Source of the DNA: a virus
Taxonomy: Duplodnaviria; Caudoviricetes
Reading direction: 5' to 3' (one strand)
DNA: 64,000 nucleotides
IMG/VR virus record: IMGVR_UViG_3300042319_002777
Span: 1,086-65,085 of that record
The notes below the pieces were generated by a model. It was given only the letters and a program-made list of their open reading frames with translations. It made no database searches and had not been told where the DNA came from. How positions within the stretch are numbered: position 1 is the stretch's first letter; each line of letters opens with the position of its first letter. The translations under genes and the position numbers were made by a program. Of the stretch, positions 38,687-62,003 are shown piece by piece.

Positions 38687-38899
38687 ATGCGAGTCCTGAT
38701 TGATTCTGAGCAAGAAGCGGCCTTGATTGAGCGGCGGCTTCGCGCCGTTCACCACTGCCTGGGGCCTTTGGTTGAGATCGAGGTTTGTCTGCCCGATGGC
38801 CGGCGCCTGCTTTCGCCCCGCGGCGGACTCTCCCCGGCCGCCCGCTGCGCCTCACTCAACGAGCGAATGGAGGAGAGGCTGAGCGGGTGTGAGGTGTGA
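38687..38899 (+). CDS. Small hypothetical protein divergent from recT
   Basis: ATG 38687 ORF. Confidence 0.5.
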   Translation: MRVLIDSEQEAALIERRLRAVHHCLGPLVEIEVCLPDGRRLLSPRGGLSPAARCASLNERMEERLSGCEV

Positions 38900-39655: not shown

Positions 39656-39808
39656 TGCCTGTGCCTGTTCGTTCCTGCATCGTCGGCGAAAGGCTACAGC
39701 AATGGCAGATTTTCGCGCAGATTTACAGCAGAAAACCCCCGTCAACCAGCGAAGCCAACCGGGGGTCTTCTGGGTGGCAAGCCACCGCAGGAATTCTACA
39801 GGGCAGCG

Positions 39809-39838
39809 AAAAAAAGGGGAGGCACTGGGGCCTCCCTT
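39809..39838 (-). terminator. Intrinsic terminator after the abrB-like gene
   Basis: Minus strand GGGAGGC...GCCTCCC followed by a T run. Confidence 0.75.
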
Positions 39839-39867
39839 GCTTCTGTCTGAACAGGGTTTGCCGGGGC

Positions 39868-40278
39868 TTAGTCGTCGCTATCGCCTGCGCCGATGGGCAC
39901 CAGGCGGACCTGCTTGCGGCCCAGTTTGATCTCGAACTCGTCGCCGGGTTCCAGGCCGAGCATGGCGGTGTAGGCCTTGCCGACCATCAGGTTCCCGTTG
40001 AACTGCACCTTGGTGGTGAAACTCAGCTTGCGGCCGGGCTTGCCGGGACCCGAGGAGTCGCCGCCAAAGCCCACGCCCTTGGCTTCCAGCAGGGCCTCAT
40101 AGAAGGCGGTGAAATTGAGGCGCTCGGTGCCGTCCTTCTTGATGCTGACGTAGCCGGTGGAGCGGACCAGATCGCTCTTTGAAGCATCGCCCAGCTCCTT
40201 GACCTTGGCGAGGAGGTCAGCGCCGACCAGGGGGGCAGACGCTGCGGTTGCAGCGGGGGCGGAAGGGGTTGCGGTCAT
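39868..40278 (-). CDS. AbrB-like transcriptional regulator (picocyanobacterial type)
   Basis: LLAKVKELGDASKSDLVR..GYVS.KKDG.ERLNFTAFYEALLEAKG...GRKLSF..KVQFNGNLMVGKAYT. Confidence 0.9.
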   Translation of the reverse strand: MTATPSAPAATAASAPLVGADLLAKVKELGDASKSDLVRSTGYVSIKKDGTERLNFTAFYEALLEAKGVGFGGDSSGPGKPGRKLSFTTKVQFNGNLMVGKAYTAMLGLEPGDEFEIKLGRKQVRLVPIGAGDSDD

Positions 40279-40552
40279 TGCAGAATCAGATTGCCTAAGC
40301 AATACTAATCTTACTCTGCACCAAAGCAACAGGCAATCACCCTGGCTGCTCGTGATCTTCGGCGGGCTCCTCCTCTGCCGCCAGGGCTTCCACCCGCTCC
40401 AGCTCCTCCAACAGGGGCACCAAGGGCTCCACAAGGGGCCACAAATCGAGATCAATCTCCACGGCAAAATCCGCAAGGAAGCCACATACTGCCCGAGCGG
40501 ATGATGGTGGCGCTGATTGGCGCGGCGGATCAGCGGCGGAAGGGATCAGCGT

Positions 40553-41368
40553 TCACCAATCCCCCAGGCGGCAGCAGCGCACCACGGCGGCACGGCGCCC
40601 TAGGCCGGTGAGTTCCTGGGCTGAGGCGATGGCGTGGGCTCGGCTGGTGGCCACGAGATCGAGGGTCACCGGGCCGGCAGGGGTGGGCAGGGTGACGCGG
40701 TAGGGGAGGGGTTCAGGCATCAACCCGCCAGGCTTGTGCGGCGCCTTGATCGGTCAGGCGGCTGGGGTGGAGGTCCGTGGTTTCAATCGGGCCTGGCTGG
40801 CTGAATCCCCGCTGGGCTTCATCAGTGGCGGCGCGGTGGTGGGCACGCTTCAGAGTTGCGGGATCCTCGTGCCAGTAGACGCAGGAGCCGCGGCGGAAGA
40901 AGAAGTAGGCCATGGGCGGGATGCAGTGGGGATGGGTTACCGGGCAAGCCCCGGCGGGGCGTGGGGGTCAGTCCTTGGCGCTTGGGAGCACTGGTCGCCA
41001 GATATGGAGCTTGATTGGCGGGCGGCCCACCCATGGAGCGGTCATCCATGCAGGCCGTGGGCGCTGGTCAAAATCCGCAGCAGTCGCCGGGGTCTTGATG
41101 TATTTGGTCGTGGTCACGGAAGGGGTTTCGCTGGTTGACGGTGGCCGGATTGGGTGCGGCTCCGGCGGGCCGCGCTAGATCAGGCCAGCAGCCGCCGCAC
41201 CCGCCAGCGCTTGCAGCCCAGCTGGTCGGCGATGCGTTGCTGGCTGAGCCCAGAGCGGTGCCAGCGGCGGGCCCGCTCGCGATCGGTTTCAAGGAACCAG
41301 GCGATCACCGCCAGGATGATCAACAAGGGCACGGCGGCCCAGAACAGGATGCAGGAGATGGAGGCCAT
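40553..41368 (-). CDS. Four small early ORFs (40553-40720, 40713-40913, 40968-41117, 41180-41368 TM plus HTH)
   Basis: Translated by eye; partly separated by the hairpin cassette repeat. Confidence 0.55.
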
Positions 41369-41637
41369 GGTTCGGATTGCAATGGGGCGGGGTGCTCCGG
41401 GGCCTCTCAGGGCCTCGCCGGAGCGGTTGCTGCGTGGCTGGCTCGAAAGGCCATCACCACCCCAGAACAATAGGGGCAGAATTGGGTAACTGGCAACAGG
41501 TGCGGCCTCGCTTCCCTGAGATCGCCCTTCCTGCCCTGATTCTCGGGTATTGCGGTTTGTTAAGCAAGTAATCCAGGGCCATGTCGTAGCCCATTCAGGT
41601 CTGGACAGGCATAATTGGGGGGACCAGCACCGATCCC

Positions 41638-41967
41638 ATGACCAAAGCCACTCCCTTTGCTGAAGACCTGGACGACGACCAAGAGGACGAGGGCCCGTCT
41701 GAGGCCGTAGCCGAGGTTCTAGACCTGGCTGCTGAGCGGCTTGACCTTGCCGGTTTCATTGAGCTGGCCCTGTTCTCGGTCCACACCGTCACCGTCGAGC
41801 TGAGCGAACAACTGGAGGAGGGAGACGAAATCGGCGCCCCAGTGATGGCCGCCTCCGTGGCCACTCTGGAGCGCCTGCAGATCGCCTCCGAAATTCTGGC
41901 CGGCGTTGACTTTGGGGATGGCCCCGAGGAATTCGAAAGTGGCGCCGTGCTGGCGCTGGCCGCCTGA
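41638..41967 (+). CDS. Very acidic 109-aa protein ending ALAA
   Basis: 27 D/E vs 3 K/R; stand-alone transcription unit. Confidence 0.75.
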   Translation: MTKATPFAEDLDDDQEDEGPSEAVAEVLDLAAERLDLAGFIELALFSVHTVTVELSEQLEEGDEIGAPVMAASVATLERLQIASEILAGVDFGDGPEEFESGAVLALAA

Positions 41968-41997
41968 TCACCTGTCTGAACGGCAGCTACGCCGCAG

Positions 41998-42019
41998 GGG
42001 CCCCACTGGGGCCCTTTTT
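41998..42019 (+). terminator. Intrinsic terminator
   Basis: GGGCCCC-act-GGGGCCC-TTTTT. Confidence 0.75.
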
Positions 42020-42035
42020 GCTGTCAGATTGGCGC

Positions 42036-43004
42036 CTATAGGTGCGGCGGAGCTGCAACGGCCCGAGCCCGCTCCAGCTCCAACACCCGAGCCAGGGGGA
42101 TCATGGCCACCTGAGGCACCACGGCATTGCCCAGCGCCTTTAGCCTGTCCACCCGACCGGATAGCCCATCATCTCCTCGACAAAGGACGGGTTCAGATAG
42201 GTAGCTGCGCCAGTCGGGAGACAGTCGGGCAATCGCTGCGGGCCATGCCGCTCCGCTGCCTCCCAGTTCGTCCGGCCTTTCCAGTCGCTGGCGCATGGGG
42301 TCAGGAGTTGAACTGCCACCGTCAGAGGTATTTGCAAGTCCTGCCCAGTCGCTGCATGTTCCAGTTGCCGCCGCCGCCAATTCTCCACGTTGCCGCTCTG
42401 CTTCGCCTCTCCTGCGTTTGGCGTCGGCAGCATCCGCCCGACCACCGTCTCTAGATTCGGAAACCGATCGCCCTCGATGTTGCCCCTGCTGTTGACCGGC
42501 GCTGCCATGGCTGAGCATGTCCTGGGAGTAGGCAACGCACCACCACCTGTCCCGCTGATGGCAGGCACCCACAGCCGCTGCCGGTATGCACGCCCATTCC
42601 GCGTCATACCCTGCCTCGGCCAGCGCTCCGAGAACGTCGTCCATTCCTCGGTAAGTGATCGCTGCGACGTTCTCCAGGACGATGTAGCGCGGTCCCACCA
42701 GGCGAACGATTCTGAGCAGTTCGTAGAACAGGCCCGATCGGCTGCCAGCCAGGCCGGCACCCTTTCCTGCTTGGCTGATGTCCTGGCATGGGAATCCACC
42801 GCAAACAATGTCGGCTGAATTGGGGGGGGGTTGGAAGGTGCAGATGTCATCGTGAATGGGAACGGTGGGCCAGTGTTTGGAAAGGATGCGCTGGCAGAAC
42901 GGCTCACGCTCCACAAACGCCACGGTTTCAATGCCGCCCAGCCAGCGAGCGGCGAGGCTAAGGCCGCCGATGCCTGAAAACGTGTCAATCATGCGGAGGG
43001 TCAT
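42036..43004 (-). CDS. C5 cytosine methyltransferase, alpha chain (motifs I-VIII and X)
   Basis: FSGIGG, GGFPCQDIS, ENV, HQRDRWW, RLKALGNAVVP. Confidence 0.92.
   Translation of the reverse strand: MTLRMIDTFSGIGGLSLAARWLGGIETVAFVEREPFCQRILSKHWPTVPIHDDICTFQPPPNSADIVCGGFPCQDISQAGKGAGLAGSRSGLFYELLRIVRLVGPRYIVLENVAAITYRGMDDVLGALAEAGYDAEWACIPAAAVGACHQRDRWWCVAYSQDMLSHGSAGQQQGQHRGRSVSESRDGGRADAADAKRRRGEAERQRGELAAAATGTCSDWAGLANTSDGGSSTPDPMRQRLERPDELGGSGAAWPAAIARLSPDWRSYLSEPVLCRGDDGLSGRVDRLKALGNAVVPQVAMIPLARVLELERARAVAAPPHL
42140..42988 (-). CDS. Nested alternative-frame beta chain of the methyltransferase (TRD/motif IX); start uncertain
   Basis: LPTP repeats and LNPSFVEEMMGYPVGWT. Confidence 0.65.
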   Translation of the reverse strand: MTRFQASAALASPLAGWAALKPWRLWSVSRSASASFPNTGPPFPFTMTSAPSNPPPIQPTLFAVDSHARTSAKQERVPAWLAADRACSTNCSESFAWWDRATSSWRTSQRSLTEEWTTFSERWPRQGMTRNGRAYRQRLWVPAISGTGGGALPTPRTCSAMAAPVNSRGNIEGDRFPNLETVVGRMLPTPNAGEAKQSGNVENWRRRQLEHAATGQDLQIPLTVAVQLLTPCASDWKGRTNWEAAERHGPQRLPDCLPTGAATYLNPSFVEEMMGYPVGWTG

Positions 43005-43586
43005 TCACCCTCCCCCCAACGGAATCACCGTGATCAGCGCCCCCGGCCGTTCGTCGCCGACGCACCAGCGCTTGTCACAACTTCCGCCGACGATTCTGGC
43101 GTCATCTTCATAGGCCAAGCGGCTCAGTGCGTCTTCGGTAGATCGCTGGAGTTTGCTGTAGTCCGGCTTGACGCAGTGGAACAGCGGGGCTTCGCGGCTG
43201 GTGGCACTGACCAGGGATGGATTTAAGGGCTTCAGGGTGCCGTCCCTGCGGTAGTGGTTCGCGGGTCGTTGAAACAGGAACACCGCCGACATGCGCACCG
43301 GCCCCTGCATCAGGGGCACCTTCGCCGCAATGGCTTCAAGAGCCACCAGCTCACGCCAGGGCTTCACGTTGCGACAGGACTCCCGCATCCCCCCGTTCGG
43401 TAGCCAGTCCTTCGAGCCTTGCGGCGCCGGCGCCATCCCTTCCACCCGAAAGGTGACGCTCTGTGGCCCTGTAAGGCCGTCCTGCCCTGCTCCCGCGCCC
43501 TCCCCACCAGAAAGCCCCTGAAAGCCCGCTGTGGCCGATTCTCCCCGGCGCCGGTGGCGATCCCGACAGGCATTGGCGGTGGTCAC
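43005..43586 (-). CDS. rusA: RusA-like Holliday junction resolvase
   Basis: PAPQGSK...KPDYSKLQRSTEDAL...EDDARIV. Confidence 0.75.
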   Translation of the reverse strand: MTTANACRDRHRRRGESATAGFQGLSGGEGAGAGQDGLTGPQSVTFRVEGMAPAPQGSKDWLPNGGMRESCRNVKPWRELVALEAIAAKVPLMQGPVRMSAVFLFQRPANHYRRDGTLKPLNPSLVSATSREAPLFHCVKPDYSKLQRSTEDALSRLAYEDDARIVGGSCDKRWCVGDERPGALITVIPLGGG

Positions 43587-44242
43587 GCTGCGCCTCCCTG
43601 CAGGGAGTAGCGCCGCAGGGTGCGCTCCATGTCCACGGCATCAACCCAGGCGCCGAGGGCCTCGTCCGCCGGCTTGGCCTCCAGTTTCACCGCACCATCG
43701 GCAGCGGCCCACACCACCACCGCCTTGGCTAGCGGGATTCCCGAGTCCGCCATGGCTGCCACCGCGGCGCCCAGCTCCGCCCATGGCGCCAGCGGGTGAA
43801 TCCGATCGTCCGGGCCACTCCAGATCGCCAGCAACCCCAGGCCGCCGTCATCAAACCGCACCGCCAGGTCCACGGTGGTGGCCGCTTCCTGCCTGAGCAC
43901 CGCCACGTGCAGCAGGGAGCCCACCACCTCGATCCGCTGCCAGAAGGCGTGGCCCACCAGGGCCTCCACCGCCGGGCGGGCCGGATTGAAGCTCGTGGAG
44001 GTTGGCGCCCATGCCGTTCCGGCGGCGGCCGGGCCCCACAGGCTCCGGGCGCGGCTGGCTATCGCCGCCCGGCACAACCGGCAGCGCTCTGGGGCTCCAG
44101 GCTGCGAGGGAAAGGCCGCCGCCACGATCCCGCGGGCGGGCATCAGCACCTGCATCCCCCGGTCAGGGTGCCAGTACAGGCCATCGGCAGGCTCGGGCAC
44201 TGCGTCGCCAACAAGCCAGCCATCGCAAGAGGTCACCGTCAT
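43583..44242 (-). CDS. Hypothetical protein (possible degenerate nuclease fold)
   Basis: Coupled ORF. Confidence 0.55.
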   Translation of the reverse strand: MTVTSCDGWLVGDAVPEPADGLYWHPDRGMQVLMPARGIVAAAFPSQPGAPERCRLCRAAIASRARSLWGPAAAGTAWAPTSTSFNPARPAVEALVGHAFWQRIEVVGSLLHVAVLRQEAATTVDLAVRFDDGGLGLLAIWSGPDDRIHPLAPWAELGAAVAAMADSGIPLAKAVVVWAAADGAVKLEAKPADEALGAWVDAVDMERTLRRYSLQGGAA

Positions 44243-44982
44243 GGGGTCACCTCCAGAGCCACAGCAGCCTGGGCCTGCTCAAGCAACTCGGCCGCCTGCT
44301 GAGCATTAAGCAGCGCCCAACCTTGGGACACGGCGCAGACCTCAAGCGGAAACCTGCCCCGCAAGCAGCGCTCAAACCAGGTACGGCCCTGGGCCAGCTC
44401 GGCATCACTGAGGGTCTGGGCCTGCGGCTCGGGATCGAGGCGCCCAAAACAATCCTGGTCCCTTTGCCAGACTGGCGCGAGAACATGGCCACGGGCCTCA
44501 AGAGCATCCAAAGACGCGGCAACTCGATCAAGGTGTTCCGCCAGCCGCTCAGCTGTCCACGGCTCTGGCTGGGCCTCAGGGAGGCGCCGGACCACTTGCC
44601 GTTCCGGCGGCGGCGGCCCTGTGTCGTGGAACCGATCCGGCTCCGCCATCCGCTCGGCCAGGTCAGGCCGTGGCCCCCGCGTCAGGATCGCCTCATCCTG
44701 GTTCACGTCTCGGCCGCGCTCGTGTCGCACGATTCGGCAAACCGGGAACACATACCGCAGAAGCGCGACGTGCAGCGCCAGGTCTCGTGGGGCCTCCAGG
44801 TCCAACAGCCGCTGCCGAACCGCAAAATCCAGGGACTGAGGCGTGAAGCCGATTTTCGCCGCAGGGTGCAGGAGCCTCCAGGAGTTCGCCAAGTCGTCGT
44901 CACTGGGGGTTTTGAGCGTGGACACTGCGGCGCACAGGACTCCAATCGCCGGGGCCCAATCGTGGATGGTGATCGCCATCAC
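44239..44982 (-). CDS. Replication-associated hypothetical protein
   Basis: Directly downstream of the initiator. Confidence 0.55.
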   Translation of the reverse strand: MMAITIHDWAPAIGVLCAAVSTLKTPSDDDLANSWRLLHPAAKIGFTPQSLDFAVRQRLLDLEAPRDLALHVALLRYVFPVCRIVRHERGRDVNQDEAILTRGPRPDLAERMAEPDRFHDTGPPPPERQVVRRLPEAQPEPWTAERLAEHLDRVAASLDALEARGHVLAPVWQRDQDCFGRLDPEPQAQTLSDAELAQGRTWFERCLRGRFPLEVCAVSQGWALLNAQQAAELLEQAQAAVALEVTP

Positions 44983-46226
44983 GCCACCTCCGCCAGAGCC
45001 AGGCACCCGTGGCCTGCTGCCTGCTGCTGAGCCCGCGCCGCCTGCCTCCGCTCCTCCTCCTCGACCAGGGCGATGGCCCCCATCACCCGATCCCGCGTAG
45101 TGGGCTTGCCCCTAAACCCGCTGCCCATAACCGGCGTGCCGGCCTTGGTGCCGTATTGCTGCCAGCGGTTGAAGTTCAGCCCCAGCCACCCAGGGCCCGA
45201 GACCCTCGCCGCGGCGCCCTCCTGCAGCTGCTCCCGCAGGATCTCCGTGCCGCCCTGCTGATGATCCTGGATTTTCTGGGCCTCGGTGAGCATTCCCTCC
45301 CAGGCCCGCTGCGTCCGCTTGGCCTTCGGGTTTCGCGCCGGCCAGAACGCGAGCAGTTCGCGAACCACCGGCAGCAGCGCCGCCGGAACATCCTCGTAGG
45401 CCGGCCTAAACCCAGCCTCGCGCTTCTGAGCCTGCGGCTTGACCGGGACGATCGCCTCAGGGTCTGGCGCCGGCTCCGGCGGTGGTTCGGGGCGGGGTCG
45501 CTGCTGCGGCTGCACGGCTGTTGGGATGCTTGCAGGGGTGGTGCTCAAAACGGCTTCTGGAGGCCAAAAAAGTTCGGCGCCGTTAGTTGCTGCAACGGTT
45601 TTCGGCCGTGGAAGGGTGGTGACCGATCCCGTGGGCTCGGGGGGTGGCTGCGGGGCGACCGGAGGTTGCGGCTCGGGAATTGGGATCAGGAACCCAACCC
45701 GATCACGACACGGGCCAGCAGCGACGGCCTCGGGCCGGCGCTCCCCCCGCGCAGTGGGGGGTAAGGGGGGTTCATAGGTTTTCTTCTTCTTGTTCTTCTT
45801 CTCTTGATCTTCTTTATGGGCACCTCCTGCCCTATCCCCATGCACCTCCTGCCCTATCCCTAGGGCACCTCCTGCCCTATCTAGATAGGGCACCTCCTGC
45901 CCTAGTGCATCTCCTGCCCTATCAACAAGGGCCCATGAAACGTCCCAGATCGTCAGCCGATAGCGGTTCGACGCCTTCCGCCCGCACTCCGCAAACGCAT
46001 GCTCACGAACCAGCCAGCCTTTGCGCTCCATCCCCGCCAGCACGCCGCTAACCGATCGCCTGGACAAACAGGCCTCCTCGGCCAGTAGGGCCATTGATGG
46101 ATGGATGTTTGGGTAGTGGCTCTGGAGGCACCACAGGATCGCCAGCTCTAGCGGTGTGGCCTGCCCTCTCAGCCAGTTGGGCAGGGCCGTGAATGAGGGC
46201 CGCTGGCCGATGTACTCGGTTGTCAT
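44979..46226 (-). CDS. Replication initiator with an N-terminal winged HTH
   Basis: FTALPNW...PSMALLAEEACLSRRSV...L...GWL...SNRYRL; internal iterons. Confidence 0.8.
   Translation of the reverse strand: MTTEYIGQRPSFTALPNWLRGQATPLELAILWCLQSHYPNIHPSMALLAEEACLSRRSVSGVLAGMERKGWLVREHAFAECGRKASNRYRLTIWDVSWALVDRAGDALGQEVPYLDRAGGALGIGQEVHGDRAGGAHKEDQEKKNKKKKTYEPPLPPTARGERRPEAVAAGPCRDRVGFLIPIPEPQPPVAPQPPPEPTGSVTTLPRPKTVAATNGAELFWPPEAVLSTTPASIPTAVQPQQRPRPEPPPEPAPDPEAIVPVKPQAQKREAGFRPAYEDVPAALLPVVRELLAFWPARNPKAKRTQRAWEGMLTEAQKIQDHQQGGTEILREQLQEGAAARVSGPGWLGLNFNRWQQYGTKAGTPVMGSGFRGKPTTRDRVMGAIALVEEEERRQAARAQQQAAGHGCLALAEVA
45820..45922. repeat. Replication-origin iterons (5 x GCAYCTCCTGCCCTA)
   Basis: Copies at 45820, 45842, 45865, 45890 and 45907, next to a T/C-rich tract at 45778-45815, lambda-O style. 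Confidence 0.8.
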
Positions 46227-47196: not shown

Positions 47197-47864
47197 GCGA
47201 GCCCCGCTGCACCGCCGAGATGGTGGCCACCATCGCCCGCGAGCACCCCGGCCAGCACCCGTACACACTGAGCCTGCTGCTGCAGGCCCGGTACGGCCGG
47301 GTTTTGGAAGGTCGCGAGGTGGCTCGGATATTGGCTGGGTTAATCCCTGTTCAGACAGGCAGTTAATGGGTATGCTTATCAGGTCATCAACTAGCGAACC
47401 CATGGCGCCCTGTGCTCCACCACCGCCAAGGCCCGATCCCAGGCCCGCACCACGCCGACGCCTCGCGCCTGATCTCGCATTGGCGGCGGCCACGCTTCAG
47501 CGCTCCGCCCTCCCCTGGGGCCACCCCAGCGCCGTGGAGCTGCGCCGCCTGTTCCGGGAGGAGCGATGAAGGAGCCCCGCTTCGTGATTCTGGCTGACCC
47601 TCCAAAATCTTATGGAAAGGCCATTGCTGCAGCGTGGTTTGCCGCTGGTTTCGCCGTGGGCTTTTTTGCGGCGATCCCTTTGGCCCCGTTGCTTGTTCTG
47701 CCGTCGAGGCATGCGCCTTGCCCGGTTCAGCGTATTCGCTGAATAAATAACAACAATCTTTTGAGATGGCCTAACCACTATCCCCCAAAACCCTGGGCCT
47801 GCACCGCCACTACGGCACAGCTGTGAGCCCCATGCTCACCACCCATTCCACCCCTCAAGCTCCC

Positions 47865-48503
47865 ATGCCTGAATCACTCCTCAACCTGCCCGAAATCCTG
47901 GCCAGCCACGCTCGCTGGTTGGCCTGTGATCCGAGCGGCCAACGCGCCAACCTCGACGGGGCCAACCTCAACAGGGCCAGCCTCGTCGGGGCCAACCTCG
48001 ACGGCGCCAGCCTCGTCGGGGCCAACCTCGACGGGGCCAACCTCGACGGGGCCAACCTCAACAGGGCCAGCCTCGTCGGGGCCAGCCTCGACGGGGCCAA
48101 CCTCAACAGGGCCAGACTCGACGGGGCCAACCTCGACGGGGCCAGCCTCGACGGGGCCAACCTCAACAGGGCCAGACTCGACGGGGCCAACCTCGACGGG
48201 GCCACTGGCATCGTTATCGCAGCCGACGCTCCTCAACGCCTCAGGGCCGCCGCAGCTGCCGCCCTCCAGGAGGGTGCGCTAGAGATGGGCGCCTGGCACT
48301 CCTGCGACACCACACATTGCCTAGGCGGCTGGCTGATCCATCAGGCCGGAGAAGTTGGCCGGCTCCTGGAGGCCACAGTCGGCCCAGGGATCGCCGGTTT
48401 GATGCTCGGCGGCGTCGAGGCTCACAGCCATTTTTACGACAGCAACGAAGCCGCTACCGAGTGGCTGCGTTCGGTGCTGGCGCAGCCTGAGGCGAAGTCG
48501 TGA
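47865..48503 (+). CDS. Pentapeptide repeat protein
   Basis: Tandem [15 protein letters not shown] repeats; C-terminal [13 protein letters not shown]. Confidence 0.9.
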
Positions 48504-51500: not shown

Positions 51501-51853
51501 CCCGCCACGTCCGCCAGCGCGGCGATGAATGGCAGGGCGCCGACCACCAGAACGGCCCTAGGCGGCCGATCCCGGCGCCTCAAGCTGGGCTGCCATGGCG
51601 AACCGATGGACCGGCCCCGGCCACCATCACCCCTGCCGACCGCCTGGCCTTGGCGGTGTGCCGTGGCGCTTGCCCAACCGGTGGCCCATGCCCGGTCGAG
51701 GCGATCTGCAGTGACTGCCGCCGCGACTCCGCCGCCGTCGCCCACGAGATTGCCCGGCAACTGCGAGAGCGCTACGGCAGCAGCGCCATAGCCGACTGGC
51801 TCGACGGGGTGGGGTGCCACACGCCGAGGGCCGGGCGAGCGGTGCATCCATGA
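48500..51853 (+). CDS. Array of coupled hypothetical ORFs (48500-49063, 49060-49461, 49458-49703, 49700-50371, 50454-50732, 50729-51130, 51127-51483, 51476-51853)
   Basis: RTGA overlaps; three end in PQAGEVE[G/A]. Confidence 0.65.
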
Positions 51854-52323
51854 CCACCCCCCCAACCGAGTGCCCCAGCTGCCACGGCAACAGCTTCCGA
51901 ACAGCTGACACCCGGCTGAATCGAGATGGCCGCCGCCGCCGCCGGTATCGGTGCCACAGCTGTGAATATCGCTGGACTGCCTGGGAGGGCGAGCGCAGCC
52001 AGTCGCCACCCAAGAAGAAGCAGCGCCGCCCGCTGAGCCCCGAGGAGGTGCGCCTGATCCTGCTGTCGCCGTTGAGCAGCTGCAGCCTGGCCAAGCAGCT
52101 GGGCTGCTCCCATGAGGCGGTGTGCTCGGTTCGCCGCGGCGACACGCACGCCCAGCTCTGGCCGGAAATTCCGCGGCAGCGTGCCAGGACCGGCCCCTCG
52201 TGCTTTGACTGCAGCCGCTGGCGTGGTGGATCAAACCCCTGCAAAGACGGGGTGCCGGAAGCGAAAGCCAGCAACCCCGGCTTTGCAGCCGAATGTGAGC
52301 TGTATGACCCGCGTGCGGGATGA
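51850..52323 (+). CDS. NrdR-like zinc ribbon plus HTH plus Cys-cluster protein
   Basis: CPSC...DTR...RRRRYRCHSCEYRWT. Confidence 0.7.
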   Translation: MTTPPTECPSCHGNSFRTADTRLNRDGRRRRRYRCHSCEYRWTAWEGERSQSPPKKKQRRPLSPEEVRLILLSPLSSCSLAKQLGCSHEAVCSVRRGDTHAQLWPEIPRQRARTGPSCFDCSRWRGGSNPCKDGVPEAKASNPGFAAECELYDPRAG

Positions 52324-55145: not shown

Positions 55146-56693
55146 ATGCCCCTAAACCTCCTCCACCACGCCGCCTACCACGACTGGGGCGGCTTCCCCG
55201 CGATGCGGGAGGTGCAGGAGGCCAGGGCCGCAGAAGCGGCGATCCCGGCGGCAGTGGAGCCTTACACCAATTCCTTCAGGCAGTACATCGCTGATGCCTT
55301 CCCGCGCTTCCCGTTTACGCCTCACACAGAACGGCTGATCGCCCTTGGCCAGCGCTTCGCCGATGGCGACCTGCCGCGGCTGATGGTGGAGCTCCCCCCG
55401 AGGCACTGGAAGTCCACAATCTTCAGTCGGTTCCTGCCCGGCTACTGCCTGCGGCGGTTCCCCGATCGCTCCGGGGGCATCTGCTGCCAGACCCAGGATC
55501 TTGCGGTGGGGTTTTCCGAGAATGCCCGCGATTACTTCGCCGCCAGTGGTGGCCCGTTGAGCCCCACCCGCTCAGGGAAGGAGGAATGGGGCACCGCCGA
55601 TGGGATCGGAACGATCTGGACTGCAGGCATCGGCAAGGGCACCGGCAAGCCAGGGCACTGGCTGTTCATCGATGACCCGATCAAGGGCAGGGAAGAGGCC
55701 GAATCGGCGGCCTTCCGCCGGCAGGTTCACAACTGGTGGGATTCAGTGCTGAGCGCCCGTGAGGAGCCCGGCAACGGCGTGGTGGTGGTTCACACCCGCT
55801 GGCATGAGGCCGATCTGATCGGCTACCTGTTGAGCAAGAACCTGGAACTGGAGAAGGAGGACATGGAGGACGACTGCGAGCGCTGGCACGTCGTCTCCCT
55901 GCCGATCTCTGCGGTGCCCGCCAACGACATCAAGCCCCTACCGGCCACCGTCACCCGCGAGGCCGACAGCCGCCAGCCCGGCGAGGCCCTGGACCCCGAT
56001 CGTTTTGATGAGCGATGGATCAAGCGGAAGAGGGCCAACACGCCAGAGCGGGACTGGGAATCGATTTTTCAGCAGCGGCCGAGCGCCGGGAAGGGGACCG
56101 TTTTCTTCCTGGATCGAATGCGGTTCTACGGCTGCCCGGCCTGGCCCGGCAAGCCCGACGACCCCGAGCTGCCGACGCACTTCATCCGCCGGATCCTGTC
56201 GGTTGACTGCACCTTTGACGACACCGCCGGTAGCGACATGGTGGCGATGACCCTTTGGGGGCAGACCCCTCAAGGCGCCTGGTTGCTGGATCTGGTGAAT
56301 GAGCGCTTGGACTTTCCCGCTACGGTGAGCATGATCCGCTCGATGTACACCCGGCACCGCTTCGGGGAGCTGGTGATCGAGAAGAAGGCCAACGGCGCCG
56401 CAGTGATCAAGACCCTCACGCAGGGCGCCCACGGCTATCAGGTGGTTGCCGCCGGGGTCGGTGACATGGGCGGCAAGGAATCCCGCGCCAATGCTGCCAG
56501 CGTGGAGTTCAACAACGGCCGGGTGTTCCTGCCTCGCTCCGCCCCCTGGAGCAATGTGGTCAAAGATCAGTTATTGCAATTCCCCGCAGCAACGTTCGAT
56601 GACATTGTGGACAGCACAAGTCAGCTCTTGATCTATCTCTCCAGCTCTGGTCCCATCAGTTTCTCTACGGTGAGCTATGGCTATGGCGCCTAA
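55146..56693 (+). CDS. terL: Terminase large subunit
   Basis: PPRHWKST Walker A, FIDDPIK Walker B, TRWHEADL, IEKKANG, FPAATFDDIVDS. Confidence 0.95.
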   Translation: MPLNLLHHAAYHDWGGFPAMREVQEARAAEAAIPAAVEPYTNSFRQYIADAFPRFPFTPHTERLIALGQRFADGDLPRLMVELPPRHWKSTIFSRFLPGYCLRRFPDRSGGICCQTQDLAVGFSENARDYFAASGGPLSPTRSGKEEWGTADGIGTIWTAGIGKGTGKPGHWLFIDDPIKGREEAESAAFRRQVHNWWDSVLSAREEPGNGVVVVHTRWHEADLIGYLLSKNLELEKEDMEDDCERWHVVSLPISAVPANDIKPLPATVTREADSRQPGEALDPDRFDERWIKRKRANTPERDWESIFQQRPSAGKGTVFFLDRMRFYGCPAWPGKPDDPELPTHFIRRILSVDCTFDDTAGSDMVAMTLWGQTPQGAWLLDLVNERLDFPATVSMIRSMYTRHRFGELVIEKKANGAAVIKTLTQGAHGYQVVAAGVGDMGGKESRANAASVEFNNGRVFLPRSAPWSNVVKDQLLQFPAATFDDIVDSTSQLLIYLSSSGPISFSTVSYGYGA

Positions 56694-56749
56694 GCATTCA
56701 CTGATGCAATAATGGGACAACAAACAGGCCCAAATCCGGTGCGTTGAGC

Positions 56750-57661
56750 ATGGCCACCACCACCCGGCGCCTCAGGGCCGCCCGCAGCCAGAAGGTCCGG
56801 CCCGACCCGTGTCCTGATCTGGACCGGCTCAAGGGGTTCCCGCCGCCTACGGCATGGTCGGAGCAGCTGGCGGCCGACAACCTCCTTTTGGCCGCCAGCA
56901 TGGCCAACCGGATGGCCCGGTCCACCCGGATGCCGTTTGACGACCTGTTCCTGGTGGCCGCCAGAGGCCTGCTCAACGGCTGCCGCAAGTATGACCCCGA
57001 GCGCCTTAACCCGGCCACCAAACGCCCCTATGCCCTGTCCACGTGCGTGGTGCCCTACGTCCGTGGGGCCATGGCCCAGTGGCTGCGGGACCGGGGCCAC
57101 AGCTCCGGGGTGAAGTTCCCCGATAAGTGGAGGGACGTGGCGCCCACGGTGCGGCGCCTCGCCGCCGACGGGGCCACCCTCTCGGCCGTGGTGGAGGCCA
57201 CCGGGCTCGCGCCTGAGGAGGTGACGGCGATCCTTGAAGCACAGGGGGCCACGCGGCTCCTCGACCCTGAGGCCCTCCATGCCAACCGTGAGCCCGACCC
57301 GTGGGATGAGATCGAGAGCTACGACGAGCTGAACGAGGTGCTGCGGATCGCAGACGAGGCCCATGCCGCTCTGCGGTGGGCGGATCGGCAGATGCTGGAA
57401 GCGGCCTGGGATGCCCAGCCCCGGCGCCAGGTGGCGCGGATGCCCCATGGGCAGTTCCTGCGGCACGCCGAGGGCATCATTTGGGGCGAGCGACTGAAGC
57501 CGGCGCCAGAGCAGCAGGCCCTGGCCTTGGTCGTGCCTGACGGGGCTGCAGGGGGCCCCGAGGGCAAGGCGGGGCGACGCATCACGGATCCGGTTGAGAT
57601 CCTGCGGGTGGCGGAGCAGTTGGATTTGTTTGGTGCCTGTCGGGATGGGGGTGGGGCATGA
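56750..57661 (+). CDS. Phage sigma factor, SigF/SigB (group 3)-like
   Basis: Region 2: NLLLA...FDDLFLVAARGLLNGCRKYDP...LSTCVVPYVRGAMAQWLRD; region 3 HTH; degenerate region 4. Confidence 0.85.
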   Translation: MATTTRRLRAARSQKVRPDPCPDLDRLKGFPPPTAWSEQLAADNLLLAASMANRMARSTRMPFDDLFLVAARGLLNGCRKYDPERLNPATKRPYALSTCVVPYVRGAMAQWLRDRGHSSGVKFPDKWRDVAPTVRRLAADGATLSAVVEATGLAPEEVTAILEAQGATRLLDPEALHANREPDPWDEIESYDELNEVLRIADEAHAALRWADRQMLEAAWDAQPRRQVARMPHGQFLRHAEGIIWGERLKPAPEQQALALVVPDGAAGGPEGKAGRRITDPVEILRVAEQLDLFGACRDGGGA

Positions 57662-57771
57662 GCACCACCCTGCACCTCCGCGAGGCCCAGTATCACGCCA
57701 TCGCCGAGCAGCGGATCAGCAGGGCCGCAGCGGCTGGGCATCAGCCCGACCTGTTCAGCCTCACCGCCTAA
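57658..57771 (+). CDS. 37-aa peptide, possible methyltransferase C-terminal remnant
   Basis: REAQYHAIAEQRI...QPDLF; coupled to the sigma gene. Confidence 0.4.
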   Translation: MSTTLHLREAQYHAIAEQRISRAAAAGHQPDLFSLTA

Positions 57772-57799
57772 CCCGCCCCTGTCACGACCCCCACGCAAG

Positions 57800-57809
57800 C
57801 GGGAAAACT
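57800..57809 (+). promoter_or_regulatory. Putative late promoter (copy 14)
   Basis: Exact motif 22 nt before GTG 57832. Confidence 0.75.
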
Positions 57810-57831
57810 GGGCCAGAAGGACTAGGCACCG

Positions 57832-59370
57832 GTGCAGCAGCAGATCAGCCACCCGAGCGATAAGGGCGATCTGCCGTCGTTCCAGCACCCGAAGCTGCGG
57901 GAAGTGATGGCCGACCTCGATCTGGTCGCCGACTGCTGGGATCTGCTGCGAGGCGACGCGAAGAAGCGGCACCTGCCAAAAGAGGCCGGCGAGCCCCGGC
58001 AGGCCTATGAGGCGCGGGTGGGGCGCAGCAGCTATCCGAGCTTTTTCAAGGATGGCGTGAGCGCCTTCGCGGGGGTGCTGAGCCGTTACCAACTGCGAGG
58101 GGTGCAGCAGGGTCTCCTCGACGCGGCCCAGGACATTGACGGCGAGGGCAACAGCCTGAAGGCTTGGGGCCTCGGCACCGATGCCCTGGTGCTCCGGGAT
58201 GGCGGCTGCCTGCTGATGGCCGACGCGCCGCAGGGGACACCCGAGAGCAGGGCGCAGGAGCGGGCCCAAGGCCGCCGGCCCACGTTCTCAGCCGCCGAGC
58301 GCCGGAACGTCCTGAATTGGCGGACCGTCAAGCGGGGCGGACGGCGGGTGCCGATCGCCGTCACGATCCTGGAGTGGCACGAGGTAAAAGACGGGGATTA
58401 CGGCGTCAAGCTGGAGCCCAGATACCGCGTGATGCAGGGGGGCAGGTGGCGCCTCCTGGAGATAACCGGCAACGGCGGCAAGGGGGCTTCGGCCAGCTTC
58501 ATCATCAAGGTGGCCACCGACGATGACGGGCGCCCGCAGGAGGGCACCTTCACCGGGCCCAGGGGCGAGGCGCTGGAGAGCCCGCCGGTGGCCTGGTACG
58601 GCGTCAGCCGCGACGGCTTTGGAGAGGGCGGCCTGCCGCTGCTGAGCCTGGCGAACCTCACCCTGGACTGGTTCCGCGAATACTCCGACCTGAAGGAGCT
58701 GCTGCACCGGTGCGCTCTGCCGGTGGCCGTGGTGAAGGGGCGCCGGATGGCTGGGCCCAATGGCGAGCCACTGCCGCTGATGCTGGGGCCGAACAGCGTG
58801 GTGGAGTTCCCGAACGCAGGCTCCGGGGAGGGGTTGGAGTTCGCCGAGCCCTCCGGCAGCAGCCTGGACAAACACCTGGCCCACCTGGAGGGGATCGAGA
58901 AGCTGATTGATCGCAGCACCCTGAGCTTCCTGTTCAGCGGCAGCGGTGAGCGCACCGCCACGCAGGCCGAGCTGGAAGGGGCCCAGCTGCAGGCCACCAT
59001 CACGGCGATGGCCGAGAGCAAGAGCAGCGCATGGGAGAGCCTCTTCCAGCTTTGGGGGGCCTTCACCGGCGAGCGGCCCCAGCCCGGTGCGGGCCTTGAC
59101 CTGTTGCCAGGGGTCACCGACAAGCCCGTGGATGATGCCTTATTGACCCTCGCCGGCACGCTCTACGACAAGGGCCTTCTCATGCGCGAGACGGTCACGC
59201 ACCTGGCGCAGAAGCGGGGCATGCTCCGCCCTGGTGCCGATGGCCAGAAGGAGGCCGCCGATCTGGCTGCCGAGGATGAACGGCAGCAGGCGTTGATGAA
59301 CCCGCCGGCACCGGGGGCGAATGACCTCGCAGGCGACGACGTGGACGCGCAGGGGCTGCCGCTGAACTGA
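57832..59370 (+). CDS. Portal protein (DUF4055-like)
   Basis: HLPKE..E...AYEAR, DIDGEGNSL, PLLSLANL, RTATQA; between TerL and MuF. Confidence 0.85.
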   Translation: MQQQISHPSDKGDLPSFQHPKLREVMADLDLVADCWDLLRGDAKKRHLPKEAGEPRQAYEARVGRSSYPSFFKDGVSAFAGVLSRYQLRGVQQGLLDAAQDIDGEGNSLKAWGLGTDALVLRDGGCLLMADAPQGTPESRAQERAQGRRPTFSAAERRNVLNWRTVKRGGRRVPIAVTILEWHEVKDGDYGVKLEPRYRVMQGGRWRLLEITGNGGKGASASFIIKVATDDDGRPQEGTFTGPRGEALESPPVAWYGVSRDGFGEGGLPLLSLANLTLDWFREYSDLKELLHRCALPVAVVKGRRMAGPNGEPLPLMLGPNSVVEFPNAGSGEGLEFAEPSGSSLDKHLAHLEGIEKLIDRSTLSFLFSGSGERTATQAELEGAQLQATITAMAESKSSAWESLFQLWGAFTGERPQPGAGLDLLPGVTDKPVDDALLTLAGTLYDKGLLMRETVTHLAQKRGMLRPGADGQKEAADLAAEDERQQALMNPPAPGANDLAGDDVDAQGLPLN

Positions 59371-59371
59371 G

Positions 59372-60463
59372 ATGGCCCCCACCGTCACCATCGGCGACCA
59401 ACAGCTCCAGCTAGCCGACGACTACGCCGCCGCCCTCGACGCGATCGGCGACCGGGCCACCACCAACACGCAGGCGGCTCTCCGCCGGTCCCTGGCCCGC
59501 ACCCTGCGGGATCTGCGGCGGTATTACGGCCAGTTCGTGGACCCCGAGCGCCCGGACCGGCCCAGCGCCGATGGCGTGACCCGCCGACCGGGGTCCTATT
59601 CGATCGCCGATGGCTCGGCCAAGTTCCGCAAGCTCCTGGAGCTGGCCCAGGCCTTCGCGTCGGATCGGGAGCTGGCCTGGCTGCAGAACCGCTACCGCGA
59701 GGACTTCGCCGAGGCGGTGGCCCTCGGCGGTGACCTGGGACAGCAGCTCGCGCAGACCGCCGACCCTGACGCGACCGCACAGGGGGTGTTCGTGGGTGCC
59801 AGCAGGGCCGCCGTGGAGGCCGCCGCCAGCACCGCATCGGCCTACATCCGGGGCGAGGTGGAGAGCTTCCGCGACAACATCGCCCGGATCGTCACCGATG
59901 GCATCGGCCGCGGGAAGGGGCCCCGCGTGCTGGAGGGAGAGATCAGGACCGCCCTGCAGGGGGCCCGCGATCCGCAGGGGCTGAACAACCGGCTGGGCCT
60001 GGAGCAGCGGGCCGAGCTGATCGCCCGATCGGAGCTGGCCAACGCCTACGTGGGCGCCCAGAAGGCAACGGCAGCCCGCAACGGGTTCGGCTATGCCCGG
60101 TGGATCGCCACCAAGGATGAGCGGACGTGCGCGGTGTGCGCCTCGCGCCATGGCCGGATCTACCGGCTCGACGAGATGGTGGGCACGCTTCATCCTCGCT
60201 GCCGGTGCAGTCTCTCCCCCGTGGCCACCGAAGCCGTGGAAGAGGCCGATCCCGCCCTCAGGGCCACCCTGTTGCGGGAGGATTACTGGGAGCGCTCGCG
60301 CAAGGCCGTGGCCGAGGAGTTTGCCGCCGCCAAGGGTGGAGCCGATCAGGGCTGGCCCTTCGCCCGTGCCTCCCAGGTGCTGGAGGAGGCCGTGCGTAAG
60401 CCCTCCCCCAGCGAGCGGCGGCAGTATCCCGACATTGAGCGGGCGCCGGCGCCGGTGGGGTAG
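59372..60463 (+). CDS. MuF/SPP1 gp7-like minor head protein
   Basis: RAELIARSE, WIATKDERTCAVCASRHG, HPRCRC. Confidence 0.9.
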   Translation: MAPTVTIGDQQLQLADDYAAALDAIGDRATTNTQAALRRSLARTLRDLRRYYGQFVDPERPDRPSADGVTRRPGSYSIADGSAKFRKLLELAQAFASDRELAWLQNRYREDFAEAVALGGDLGQQLAQTADPDATAQGVFVGASRAAVEAAASTASAYIRGEVESFRDNIARIVTDGIGRGKGPRVLEGEIRTALQGARDPQGLNNRLGLEQRAELIARSELANAYVGAQKATAARNGFGYARWIATKDERTCAVCASRHGRIYRLDEMVGTLHPRCRCSLSPVATEAVEEADPALRATLLREDYWERSRKAVAEEFAAAKGGADQGWPFARASQVLEEAVRKPSPSERRQYPDIERAPAPVG

Positions 60464-60480
60464 GGGCGCCCAAGGGGAAG

Positions 60481-60490
60481 CGGGAAAACT
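60481..60490 (+). promoter_or_regulatory. Putative late promoter (copy 15)
   Basis: Exact motif 22 nt before GTG 60513. Confidence 0.75.
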
Positions 60491-60512
60491 ACCTGCAGTA
60501 GCAGCGGTTCCA

Positions 60513-62003
60513 GTGGCAGGCGGCAGCAAGGGCAGGCGGACCTACGCCAGGGACAACCGGGGCCGCTTCGCCTCGACTGGCACCACCACCGCCAAGGCCA
60601 AGCCCGCCGCCCGGCGAGCGCAGCGAGGCACGAACCGAATCACCAGGGACAACAGCGGCAAGATCACCGGCGTGGGTAAGAACGGCGCCACGGCGCGTGG
60701 TGGTCGCCTCAGGACCGCCGCCGGGAACCAGCGGGGGGCGGTGTTGGATCGGCTCAAGCGGGCGCCCATGGCGGGGACTGTGGGCAGGGGCGGGAAGATT
60801 CGGGGTGGGGTGAAGGGGATGGCTGTGGCCAGGCAACCGGCAACGATCGGGAAGCCCATTGGCGGCGCAAGCAAGCAAATCAAGGGCGGCGCCGTCAGGG
60901 GCACCATGAAGCCTCCGGTGACGCTGGGAGGGTTGCTTGGCGCGGGTGGAAATCGGTGGCAGAAGAACGGCATGGACAGGATTTATTTCAATAACATTGC
61001 GGAAAGAGCTGGCATTAGCGCCAATCGCTACAAGTCGGGAAACATCAGTTCGGCCAGTCTTTCTGGTAAGGGAATTAGCAACAGCAAAGCACGCGAAATC
61101 ATATCCACTCTTGAGTCGGGGAAGGTTTTTTACGATAGGAAGGCAAGACGAATGGTTGTTCAGGGCCCGGCCATGAGAACTGGCAGGTCCAGTCAGATGA
61201 CCACGGCTGAGCAGCTAGCGGGCAGGGTCGCCAGCCGCCTCCAGCGGCAATCCAGAATGAGGGCAACACGCCGGGCCAATCAGGGCGGAGCGCCAAGGCC
61301 GGCGGCTAAGCCAGTCGCCCCCAAGCAAACCAAGGCCGCCACGGTGGCACGACGCCCAGTCAAGACGAGGCAGGACAAAGCGGCTCAGGCGATGAGGCTC
61401 GCCTCTCGTGCAGCGGCTCGATCTCAGTCGCCCAAGCTGAGCAAGGCGGCGGCACTGCGCAGCGAGAAGCTGTCAGCCAGCCTCAGGGCAAGGGCAAAAC
61501 AGCTATCGCAGCGGCCAACCCTCAGCAGGGCCCAGCGGGACAAGGCTGCACGGGCTCGGAAGGACTACGGGGTGAAGTCCACGGGCACCAAGGGCAAGAA
61601 GGGTGCTGCAGTCCCCTCTGGAGCAATCCCATCGGGCCGCACCGTCTACCGGACCAGGGCGCAGGCGATCAGGGCGCAGCAGGCCCGCACCAACACCCTC
61701 GGGAAGGCGACCGCCGCGAAGCGAGGCTTCAATGAGGCGGTCGGCAAGCGCAGTGATTTCGCCGACTCCGCCCCCCGCACCGTGATCAGCCGCCCAAGGA
61801 TCCCGCAGCTCAGCCTGTCGGGCCGGGTTGAGCGTGTCGGCGCTGGCCGCTTCCGCACCATTGGCGAACGCCTGGGCGGCGGCAGCATCCGCCGGCCTCG
61901 ATCCAAGCCCGGCCCGCTGCGTGGCACCAAGGCCTGGAAGCGGCAGCTCAATCAGGCGATCAAGGCGAACGGCGGCAAGGACGCGGCCGCGTTCCGGTTC
62001 TGA
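60513..62003 (+). CDS. Highly basic protein, RDNxGRF family paralog 3
   Basis: Start corrected to GTG 60513 (MAGGSKGRRTYARDNRGRFAS). Confidence 0.8.
   Translation: MAGGSKGRRTYARDNRGRFASTGTTTAKAKPAARRAQRGTNRITRDNSGKITGVGKNGATARGGRLRTAAGNQRGAVLDRLKRAPMAGTVGRGGKIRGGVKGMAVARQPATIGKPIGGASKQIKGGAVRGTMKPPVTLGGLLGAGGNRWQKNGMDRIYFNNIAERAGISANRYKSGNISSASLSGKGISNSKAREIISTLESGKVFYDRKARRMVVQGPAMRTGRSSQMTTAEQLAGRVASRLQRQSRMRATRRANQGGAPRPAAKPVAPKQTKAATVARRPVKTRQDKAAQAMRLASRAAARSQSPKLSKAAALRSEKLSASLRARAKQLSQRPTLSRAQRDKAARARKDYGVKSTGTKGKKGAAVPSGAIPSGRTVYRTRAQAIRAQQARTNTLGKATAAKRGFNEAVGKRSDFADSAPRTVISRPRIPQLSLSGRVERVGAGRFRTIGERLGGGSIRRPRSKPGPLRGTKAWKRQLNQAIKANGGKDAAAFRF

Follow-up and report, generated by a model that had tools for sequence, protein, structure and literature searches.

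How does a phage sigma factor that has no recognizable −35-reading domain find its promoters, and why does its tail carry a peptide of the kind that binds the bacterial β clamp? The question is raised by a gene in IMGVR_UViG_3300042319_002777, an IMG/VR record of a tailed virus (Duplodnaviria; Caudoviricetes). The stretch analyzed here, hereafter the window, comprises 64,000 of the 65,085 bases (positions 1,086 to 65,085) of this complete record, which has direct terminal repeats and an estimated completeness of 100%, and its sigma gene lies between the large terminase gene terL and the portal gene, exactly where the initial annotation had placed it (coordinates of all features are collected in the table below). 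That annotation described the protein as a SigF-like phage sigma with a degenerate region 4.2 and a C-terminal QLDLF clamp motif, i.e., an analogue of T4 gp55, and proposed a replication-coupled late transcription system using the host clamp DnaN. The sequence evidence partly supports this interpretation, and three of the checks by which the annotation could have been overturned (on region 4.2, on conservation of QLDLF and on its co-occurrence with GGGAAAACT) turned up nothing against it. We give about an even chance to the proposal that the protein is the late sigma of a temperate, host-replisome-dependent cyanosiphovirus and is tethered via its tail to host DnaN.

The protein is a diverged member of the SigF/SigB type of sigma, and its regions 2 and 3 look functional. 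The NCBIfam SigF model PRK07408 matches residues 40–139 (E 9.3e-11; residue numbers are those of a 305-aa frame, that is, numbering from ATG 56750 plus 2), and the SigB/SigF/SigG model TIGR02980 matches residues 39–196, corresponding to model positions 5–156 of 227 (E 1.6e-8), although the scores of 41.8 bits vs. a cut-off of 261 and 34.5 bits vs. a cut-off of 234.35, respectively, fall far under both curated cut-offs. PHROG sigma families match at E 7.6e-14 and 3.6e-13, and the SigF structure 1l0o_C in the PDB aligns with residues 41–206. For the window sigma protein itself, a Pfam search at E ≤ 1 returned no family match. The same search over the 43 members of alignment A1 detected Sigma70_r2 (PF04542) in 38/43 and Sigma70_r3 in 6/43; A1 consists of the window sigma and 42 of 60 database matches, the 18 that were omitted being near-duplicate or truncated (P0002, 3, 11, 14, 17, 18, 21, 25, 33, 38, 39, 40, 47 and 50–54). 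When the family profile was compared by hhalign with eight host group-3 sigmas taken from picocyanobacterial genomes (set A4), all of which have an intact region 4, a probability of 99.4 was obtained over columns 33–179, covering regions 2 and 3 only. A Foldseek search with the whole AlphaFold2 (AF2) model gave 19 matches with E ≤ 0.001, all of them RNA polymerase (RNAP)-complex or sigma-factor-model entries. Within region 3, residues 128–164 also show weak matches to Raf1_HTH and CAP-repeat HTH, two helix-turn-helix (HTH) families. The NCBIfam, PHROG, PDB, hhalign and family-wide Pfam matches bear out the SigF-like assignment with clear regions 2 and 3. Ahead of region 2, the protein has a basic disordered N-terminus followed by an invariant FPPPT.WSEQ (56837–56866, residues 32–41), of which F32, P35, S39 and E40 are invariant in all 43 aligned family members.

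Region 4 is where profile and structure diverge. The family profile aligns to S. aureus SigB 8x6g_H and to SigF 1l0o_C up to profile position 222–223, through region 4.1 'ls..re..i', in agreement with the 4.1-like helix that had been noticed earlier. Further on, profile methods are silent: neither Sigma70_r4 nor r4_2 is found among the 25 families listed of 27 in the 43-member Pfam scan (each of the two unlisted families matches at most one member), and hhalign against the eight host sigmas gives no alignment past column 179 and so none in region 4. AF2 run with A1 (pLDDT, the predicted local distance difference test score, 75) and AF2 of residues 185–305 with a 30-row alignment (pLDDT 81) agree on the helices, the loop and the tail elements. 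The second of the three predicted helices, 212–223, is 4.1-like and has the sequence AHAALRWADRQMLEAAW; the third, 232–246, has the sequence HGQFLRHAEGII; and the place where the first HTH helix of region 4.2 belongs is taken by an 8-residue loop at 224–231. Residues 195–245 are predicted with a pLDDT of 81–96, and W222 and Q237 are kept in at least 90% of rows, with Q237/F238 near-invariant. In a VIA-align search of 48,161 chains with the C-terminal domain, the top match is the −35-binding domain of M. tuberculosis SigL (3hug_A; Z 5.8, root-mean-square deviation 3.9, 65 aligned residues). Eight of 50 rows are titled sigma factor or region 4 (3hug_A, 8z6g_B, 3mzy_A, 8hkc_E, 8x6g_H, 2h27_D, 7lq4_A and 6ono_B), and four further rows are F chains from holoenzyme entries, with alignments over C-terminal ranges; the Z values of the region-4 neighbours, 3.8–5.8, all lie below 6 and hence within the noise range for helical domains. 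Foldseek, when given only the model of the C-terminal domain, found nothing better than E 3.3. The earlier statement that no 4.2 is recognizable thus holds for the Pfam and hhalign comparisons, whereas the structure shows a weak sigma-4-like three-helix remnant. According to the model, the C-terminal domain may be a shrunken sigma-4-derived fold without a canonical HTH that may still sit on the β-flap.

The three-helix domain with its well-predicted core, the identity of its top structural neighbour and the near-invariance of W222 and Q237/F238 speak for a conventional explanation, in which this is an ordinary group-3 sigma whose region 4 has diverged too far for hidden Markov models yet still reads an upstream element, the tail motif being incidental or a degron. 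The fact that only eight residues, predicted as a loop, occupy the place of the first HTH helix argues against it, as do features of the tail and of the promoter-like sites described in the following.

In the AF2 model the tail leaves the protein at the sigma-4 remnant and leads, over ~45 residues of low to medium confidence, to QLDLF. A flexible tail, as proposed in the initial annotation, is therefore present but is not wholly flexible, as AF2 places short strands at 262–264 and 278–280 and a helix at 283–292 that runs into the motif (pLDDT about 60–86). Clamp-binding motifs also occur as a hexapeptide variant, QLxLxL. QLDLF matches exactly the bacterial β-clamp-binding consensus QL[SD]LF, as this consensus is quoted in PMC12867686. 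The motif does not form the extreme C-terminus here, in contrast to the earlier description, since it is followed by GACRDGGGA and a stop, placing it nine residues ahead of the end; in four relatives, however, the lineages L056, L060, L061 and P0056, the protein ends exactly at QL[DT]LF. By chance, a QL.LF would be expected about 0.004 times in a 305-aa protein (an estimate from typical residue frequencies), and among the real genes of the window QLxLF is found in the sigma only. A first conserved tail island with the pattern Q..L.L.VP lies further upstream, and its L260 is kept in at least 90% of the rows of alignment A5; relatives have QLSLLEV, QLGLGLQVP or KQIDLSIEV at this place. Judging from these sequences, the island may act as an additional clamp-type motif, weaker than QLDLF, or contribute a strand to a small fold in the tail.

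The motif is conserved in homologues. In each of 82 related loci (80 viral and two from metagenome-assembled genomes, MAGs) the sigma frame was read to its stop, and the motif was tallied in 55 representatives less than 90% identical to each other, 51 of which derive from 114 anchored sequences and four of which (L056, L060, L061 and L078) were added by hand as they have no FPxPT anchor. Dropped from the tally were the incomplete open reading frames (ORFs) of L014, L045, L055, L064 and L072, the 5′-cut L031 and the mis-framed L054. At the aligned position, QLxLF is found in 21 representatives, QLxL[LIMV] in 12, QLALG[LF] in four, QLG[IF][FL] or QLDMF in five, QMxL[FL] in three, and QPSLF and QAALL in one each, with eight divergent sequences; overall, a clamp-binding-type pattern is present in 47/55 and the Q is retained in 50/55. 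A HMMER scan of 1.84 billion representative proteins yielded 56 proteins at E ≤ 1e-30, and Q[LM]xL[FLIM] occurs in the last 90 residues of 26/56 of them vs. 0/56 for the rest of the protein (11,749 residues). Such conservation in tails and absence from bodies is too strong for an incidental motif, and a degron would not be expected to mimic the clamp-motif pattern so closely. Among 94 more distant sigmas, the same pattern is found in the tail of three and in the body of three. Two distant sigma-like proteins with a Sigma70_r2 match only, P0148 (233 aa) and P0191 (272 aa), end in ..EEQLNLF and ..AEQLSLFG. At the level of sequence, this hints that sigmas lacking region 4 but having clamp-type tails turn up again beyond this clade.

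In most relatives the motif codons lie 7–37 nt from the promoter-like motif of the portal gene, i.e., at its −35/UP position, which would fit a reading in which selection keeps the QLxLF codons for their DNA sequence, as an element upstream of that promoter, and not for the encoded peptide. However, synonymous codons vary freely across relatives: all six Leu codons are used at position 2 and five at position 4, the Q is encoded by CAG or CAA, and the F by TTT or TTC. The gap to the next promoter motif is likewise variable, reaching 256–1949 nt outside the 7–37-nt group, and the motif persists throughout, with 142 nt in the window, 256–838 nt, or 1–2 kb of other genes in between; moreover, the other promoter-like sites have no such upstream sequence. 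Based on the codon variation and the variable promoter distance, conservation of the motif codons at the DNA level was rejected, and we consider it scarcely credible. Because the synonymous codons and the distance to the promoter both vary, selection acts on the motif as protein.

The promoter-like sequence is the 9-mer GGGAAAACT, which occurs in 15 exact copies in the window, all on the + strand (at 285, 543, 1236, 1363, 4935, 9898, 11677, 19675, 20169, 21677, 22565, 24574, 29795, 57801 and 60482). With up to one mismatch there are 22 copies, vs. 10.5 ± 3.6 in shuffles (maximum 19). The copies stand ahead of late genes, from the portal (57801) round to about 29,800, and the extended consensus of the sites is C-GGGAAAACT-G..GCAG. 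In 95 non-redundant sites from the window and its relatives, the first ATG peaks 20–25 nt after the 9-mer, each of the 28 upstream positions from −30 to −3 relative to the 9-mer carries less than 0.3 bit of information, and no position further upstream than −30 reaches the threshold for a consensus letter; no upstream 4–6-mer is found in more than about a third of 96 sites. Across the 82 related loci, the 9-mer is on the sigma strand in 64, the other strand having two copies in total. The co-occurrence of QLxLF with GGGAAAACT, which the initial annotation had put forward as a check, is thus observed, without a −35 partner. L063 and L080 retain the core GGAAAACT, and the most distant group, L068–L077, has no 9-mer yet retains QLGL[LIM].

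SigB-type promoters have a GGG-rich −10 element. The GGGAA of the 9-mer is similar to GGTAA, the −12 element of SigF promoters in Synechocystis, where a TAGGC element at −32 is required as well (PMC2532724). Judged by sequence, the GGGAAAACT sites are probably −10-only late promoters of this sigma. The lack of a conserved upstream element in 95–96 non-redundant promoter-like sites weighs against an ordinary group-3 sigma that still reads one, and together with the loop in region 4 and the conservation of the tail motif it leads us to regard that explanation as rather improbable.

A different explanation keeps the late sigma and gives its tail another partner: the conserved tail module would bind RNAP (the β-flap or β′, making up for the decay of region 4), an anti-sigma or co-activator of the phage, or the terL/portal packaging machinery. 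The conserved block, RRITxPxEIL..AE-QLxLF, is ~20 residues long and is predicted to form a helix plus a short hairpin, which is more than a typical clamp peptide, and the sigma gene is always beside terL and portal. T4 gp55 has been reported to contact the terminase. In addition, T4 packaging in vitro requires gp45 and gp33/gp55 (PMC12867686). On the other hand, the variation within the motif obeys clamp-motif rules, with Q at position 1 in 50/55, L, M or P at position 2, a small or acidic residue at position 3 and hydrophobic residues at positions 4–5, and several lineages end exactly at the motif. Distant sigmas with a region-2 match only and with unrelated tails also end in QLNLF, QLSLFG or QGSLF, and this sharing of a terminal pentapeptide by unrelated tails points to the pentapeptide, and not the surrounding module, as the selected unit. 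We therefore take a partner other than the clamp to be unlikely, albeit to a lesser degree than an ordinary group-3 sigma.

For tethering to host DnaN, the replication genes of the phage are relevant. Six-frame searches of the complete record, with working controls, found no DnaN, Pol A, Pol B or Pol III α, the control for DnaN being positive in 10 genomes; a search with a gp45-type clamp model gave no match, and its control matched nowhere either. None of the early-region ORFs is annotated as a clamp. An O-like replication initiator is present (phrog_270/391), and the phage also carries a serine integrase, RecT, a PDDEXK nuclease, RusA, a C5 methylase and a dCTP deaminase; all but the last of these, together with an AbrB-like regulator, belong to a lysogeny/recombination module at 30464–46226. 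Since the phage has neither a polymerase nor a DnaN of its own, the host replisome must replicate it, so that host DnaN rings should be loaded on phage DNA, and this absence fits the use of host DnaN by the phage.

Based on these observations, we propose the following mechanism for a DnaN-tethered late sigma. The sigma would be made before the late genes, as the last gene of a + strand middle operon with terL, an operon that has no copy of the 9-mer. It would then direct the host RNAP core to GGGAAAACT, region 2 reading this sequence as a −10/−12 element, while the sigma-4 remnant would sit on the β-flap and read no −35 sequence. The QLDLF of the tail would dock into the hydrophobic pocket of host DnaN rings that remain on the phage DNA as it replicates, possibly with the island at 256–265 acting as a second clamp motif, and the clamp would thereby provide the upstream hold on DNA that this sigma lacks. 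Such a design would cross the T4 gp55/gp45 system with the MuC/β-clamp system of Mu. In the T4 activation complex, gp33 and gp45 sit on the side that matches the sigma-4 remnant, from which the tail emerges here (PMC7892883). Late transcription would accordingly be efficient only on replicating templates and silent on the prophage. Promoter function, clamp binding and activation are in each case what we infer from sequence. A broader version would extend this design to a clade of freshwater and marine cyanosiphoviruses including S-CBS2 and S-CRES, in which a SigF-derived sigma with a decayed −35-reading domain would catch DnaN by one or two tail motifs as a sequence-independent substitute for the −35 element, and about 15 GGGAAAACT promoters would fire only on replicating DNA and stay silent in the lysogen. 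We hold this clade-wide version with somewhat less confidence, a little short of an even chance.

Several observations weigh against clamp-tethered, −35-independent late transcription. First, a sigma-4-like remnant persists, and with such a remnant in place we infer −35-independent initiation only from the lack of upstream conservation. Second, the promoter role of GGGAAAACT is read from its position, its strand bias and its likeness to SigF/SigB −10 elements. Third, the pattern is lost in 8/55 representatives (NAEI, EASIV, QLAVA, QLAIA, GLAVF, GLAEF, ALGLL and QQVLN), and in many relatives the motif lies 20–80 residues short of the stop. Fourth, the conserved C-terminal module exceeds a minimal clamp-binding peptide in length, and the hairpin and helix that AF2 places in the tail could form a small docking domain for another partner. 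A complex prediction of sigma residues 250–305 (alignment A1) with DnaN speaks neither for nor against binding, as it scored 0.02 vs. a mark of 0.32 in a run without controls and with a stand-in DnaN; this DnaN came from the MAG holding L081, the presumed host of a 64%-identical relative, and was used with alignment A3 of 24 picocyanobacterial DnaN sequences.

The sequence behind the motif requires some care. Many homologue tails appear to share a protein motif 'GGKT..G.G..GA..DQPS', which was rejected as such because GGG-AAA-ACT, i.e., GGGAAAACT of the portal promoter, reads as G-K-T when translated, and DQPS comes from an overlap, in a different frame, with the start of the portal gene. Such translated-promoter tails are seen in the homologues from loci L001–L053 and in the window ORF 57594–57863 and constitute an annotation trap. 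In L063 and L080 the last sigma codons, 'EN' plus the stop, are the promoter-like motif itself. In the window, a 142-nt insert that is absent from close relatives supplies the last eight codons and the stop of the sigma gene and separates QLDLF from the portal promoter. The insert contains a 37-codon ORF (57658–57771), which an internal deletion has left over from a DPPY DNA methyltransferase gene; in L023 (7933–9102), that gene is intact at the same spot. A frameshift or sequencing error in the window sigma tail was therefore rejected, the difference from close relatives being this methylase-gene remnant. HQPDLFSLT[TA] forms the end of the L023 methylase and of the 37-codon remnant alike. It includes QPDLF, which in MuC is a functional clamp motif at the C-terminus (PMC12867686), so that the methylase may also ride on DnaN. 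Two freshwater-sediment metatranscriptome libraries from one study (0.13 word share) each contain one 54–64-kb contig of a ~93%-identical relative, which does not have the 142-nt insert and, compared over 56000–62000, has replaced segments at 56096–56661, 60463–60556 and 60749–61328. This contig is a whole phage genome and may stem from DNA in the library.

Features of the sigma locus in the window (residues in the numbering of the 305-aa frame; AF2, AlphaFold2 model)
Feature	Coordinates	Strand	Residues or detail	Evidence
Large terminase terL (Terminase_6N/6C)	55146..56693	+	upstream neighbour of sigma	Pfam
Phage sigma gene	56750..57661	+	303 aa from ATG 56750	homology (NCBIfam, PHROG, PDB, hhalign, Foldseek)
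Sigma region 2	56852..57109	+	about 37–122	AF2 helices, pLDDT 88–96; NCBIfam/PDB alignments; hhalign 99.4
Sigma region 3, HTH-like	57122..57259	+	about 127–172	TIGR02980 to model position 156; hhalign to column 179
Degenerate sigma-4-like domain (predicted)	57299..57481	+	helices 186–208, 212–223, 232–246	AF2; HMM/hhalign silence on region 4; VIA-align
First conserved tail island, EQQALALVVP	57509..57538	+	256–265, pattern Q..L.L.VP	alignment of relatives
Conserved basic/helical segment RRITDPVEILRVAE	57575..57616	+	runs into motif	alignments; AF2 helix 283–292
QLDLF	57617..57631	+	292–296	exact match to QL[SD]LF; conservation; codon variation
142-nt insert, absent from close relatives	57636..57777	+		alignment; contig joint 57635 to 57778
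GGGAAAACT, putative late promoter (−10/−12-type) of portal	57801..57809	+	first of late-gene series	motif counts, site alignment
Portal (DUF4055)	57832..59370	+	first gene behind QLDLF motif	Pfam

The sigma frame is also open from TTG 56744 (56744..57661, +), which gives 305 aa; ATG 56750 is the likelier start because the closest homologues, P0001 and P0002, are 303 aa long. A Mu-F-like head protein gene comes after the portal. Elsewhere in the window, a pentapeptide-repeat protein is encoded at 47823–48503 and an NrdR-like zinc-ribbon protein at 51814–52323.

Clamp-activated transcription has long been seen as a peculiarity of T4-type phages and was extended to a host β clamp only in 2026, for Mu (PMC12867686). 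In the literature searched, with subscription journals and supplements lying outside its scope, there is no report of a sigma factor with a host-clamp motif, the only related work being on T4 and Mu. If the proposal is true, placing the clamp motif on the sigma itself would amount to a third design, independent of the other two and used by abundant temperate cyanophages whose replication depends on the host replisome; the protein would become the first known example of a sigma that binds the bacterial β clamp directly, and clamp-activated transcription would have arisen independently at least three times. It would also offer a simple explanation for how a sigma can dispense with −35 recognition, and a built-in safety catch against late-gene expression from the prophage. 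With S-CBS2 and S-CRES1–3 there are relatives in culture, with sigmas ending in QGSLF, so that the idea can be put to a direct test. Annotators should read the 'GKT..DQPS' C-terminal extensions of this sigma family as promoter DNA in translation, and it is worthwhile to screen for QLxLF-type tails on region-4-less phage sigmas, a signature that recurs.

The cultured Synechococcus siphoviruses S-CBS2 and S-CRES1–3 have a terS–terL–sigma order, in common with the terL–sigma order of the window. Their sigmas are 32–36% identical to the window sigma over regions 2–3, with only Sigma70_r2 detected, and those of S-CRES1 and S-CBS2, which are 34–36% identical over residues 40–159, end in QGSLF; in contrast, they are shorter, at 244 aa, with an unrelated middle and tail. 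Within 5.4 kb around the S-CBS2/S-CRES sigma genes, GGAAAAC is not found on the sigma strand, S-CRES1 having one copy on the other strand. The annotated S-CBS2 sigma (206 aa; L134, NC_015463.1 2459–3195) stops early; the conserved C-terminal part, with ...GRLQGSLF at its end, lies in another frame and corresponds to the 244-aa S-CRES1 protein, the early stop being a frameshift or sequencing error in the record. The available portions of PMC6157547 and PMC3751600, which deal with these or related phage sigmas, do not mention a clamp motif.

The group-3 sigmas SigF, SigB and SigG, including cyanobacterial SigF, provide the best model and profile matches, and GGGAAAACT resembles the −12 element GGTAA of SigF promoters in Synechocystis. 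The window sigma differs from them in scores far below the family cut-offs, in having no recognizable region 4.2 and no counterpart of the TAGGC −32 element, and in its long tail with a clamp-type motif.

With the T4 system of gp55, gp33 and gp45, we note three similarities. First, a phage sigma-family protein brings the RNAP of the host to a late promoter that has a short −10-type element and no −35, as is proposed here. Second, a clamp-binding peptide is tethered to the sigma by a linker, here by sequence only; in T4, clamp-binding motifs are joined by linkers to gp55 and gp33, and the gp33 motif is the essential one (PMC7892883). Third, the logic is alike in that late transcription is coupled to replication, as it would be here. 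There are also three differences. T4 has its own clamp and loader, whereas this phage, having no DnaN or polymerase, would need host DnaN. The T4 gp55 is region-2-like only, with gp33 on the flap, whereas this sigma keeps regions 2 and 3 plus a sigma-4-like remnant. Finally, this sigma has no detectable homology to gp55 and is SigF/SigB-like instead. The notion of a gp55-like minimal sigma was consequently not borne out, since region 3 and a sigma-4-like domain are present.

The late activator MuC of phage Mu needs its QHDLF and QPDLF motifs as well as host DnaN for late transcription from −35-less promoters (Ho & Harshey 2026, PMC12867686). A Mu mutant in the motif lyses late and gives a smaller burst (PMC12867686). 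Like the window phage, Mu is a temperate phage replicated by the host (by Pol III in Mu), with QL[SD]LF-type motifs and with late promoters, putative in the window phage, that have a −10 but no −35 element; to the two motifs of MuC correspond the QLDLF of this sigma and, possibly, its second island Q..L.L.VP. However, MuC is a small DNA-binding activator that works with sigma-70, whereas in the window phage the sigma itself carries the motif and there is no evident activator site; a Mor/MuC domain has no Pfam match in the window sigma or its 42 relatives. Moreover, clamp use has been shown experimentally in Mu, whereas here it is read from sequence. Thus, besides T4, it is MuC of Mu that is the closest published precedent for the use of a host clamp.

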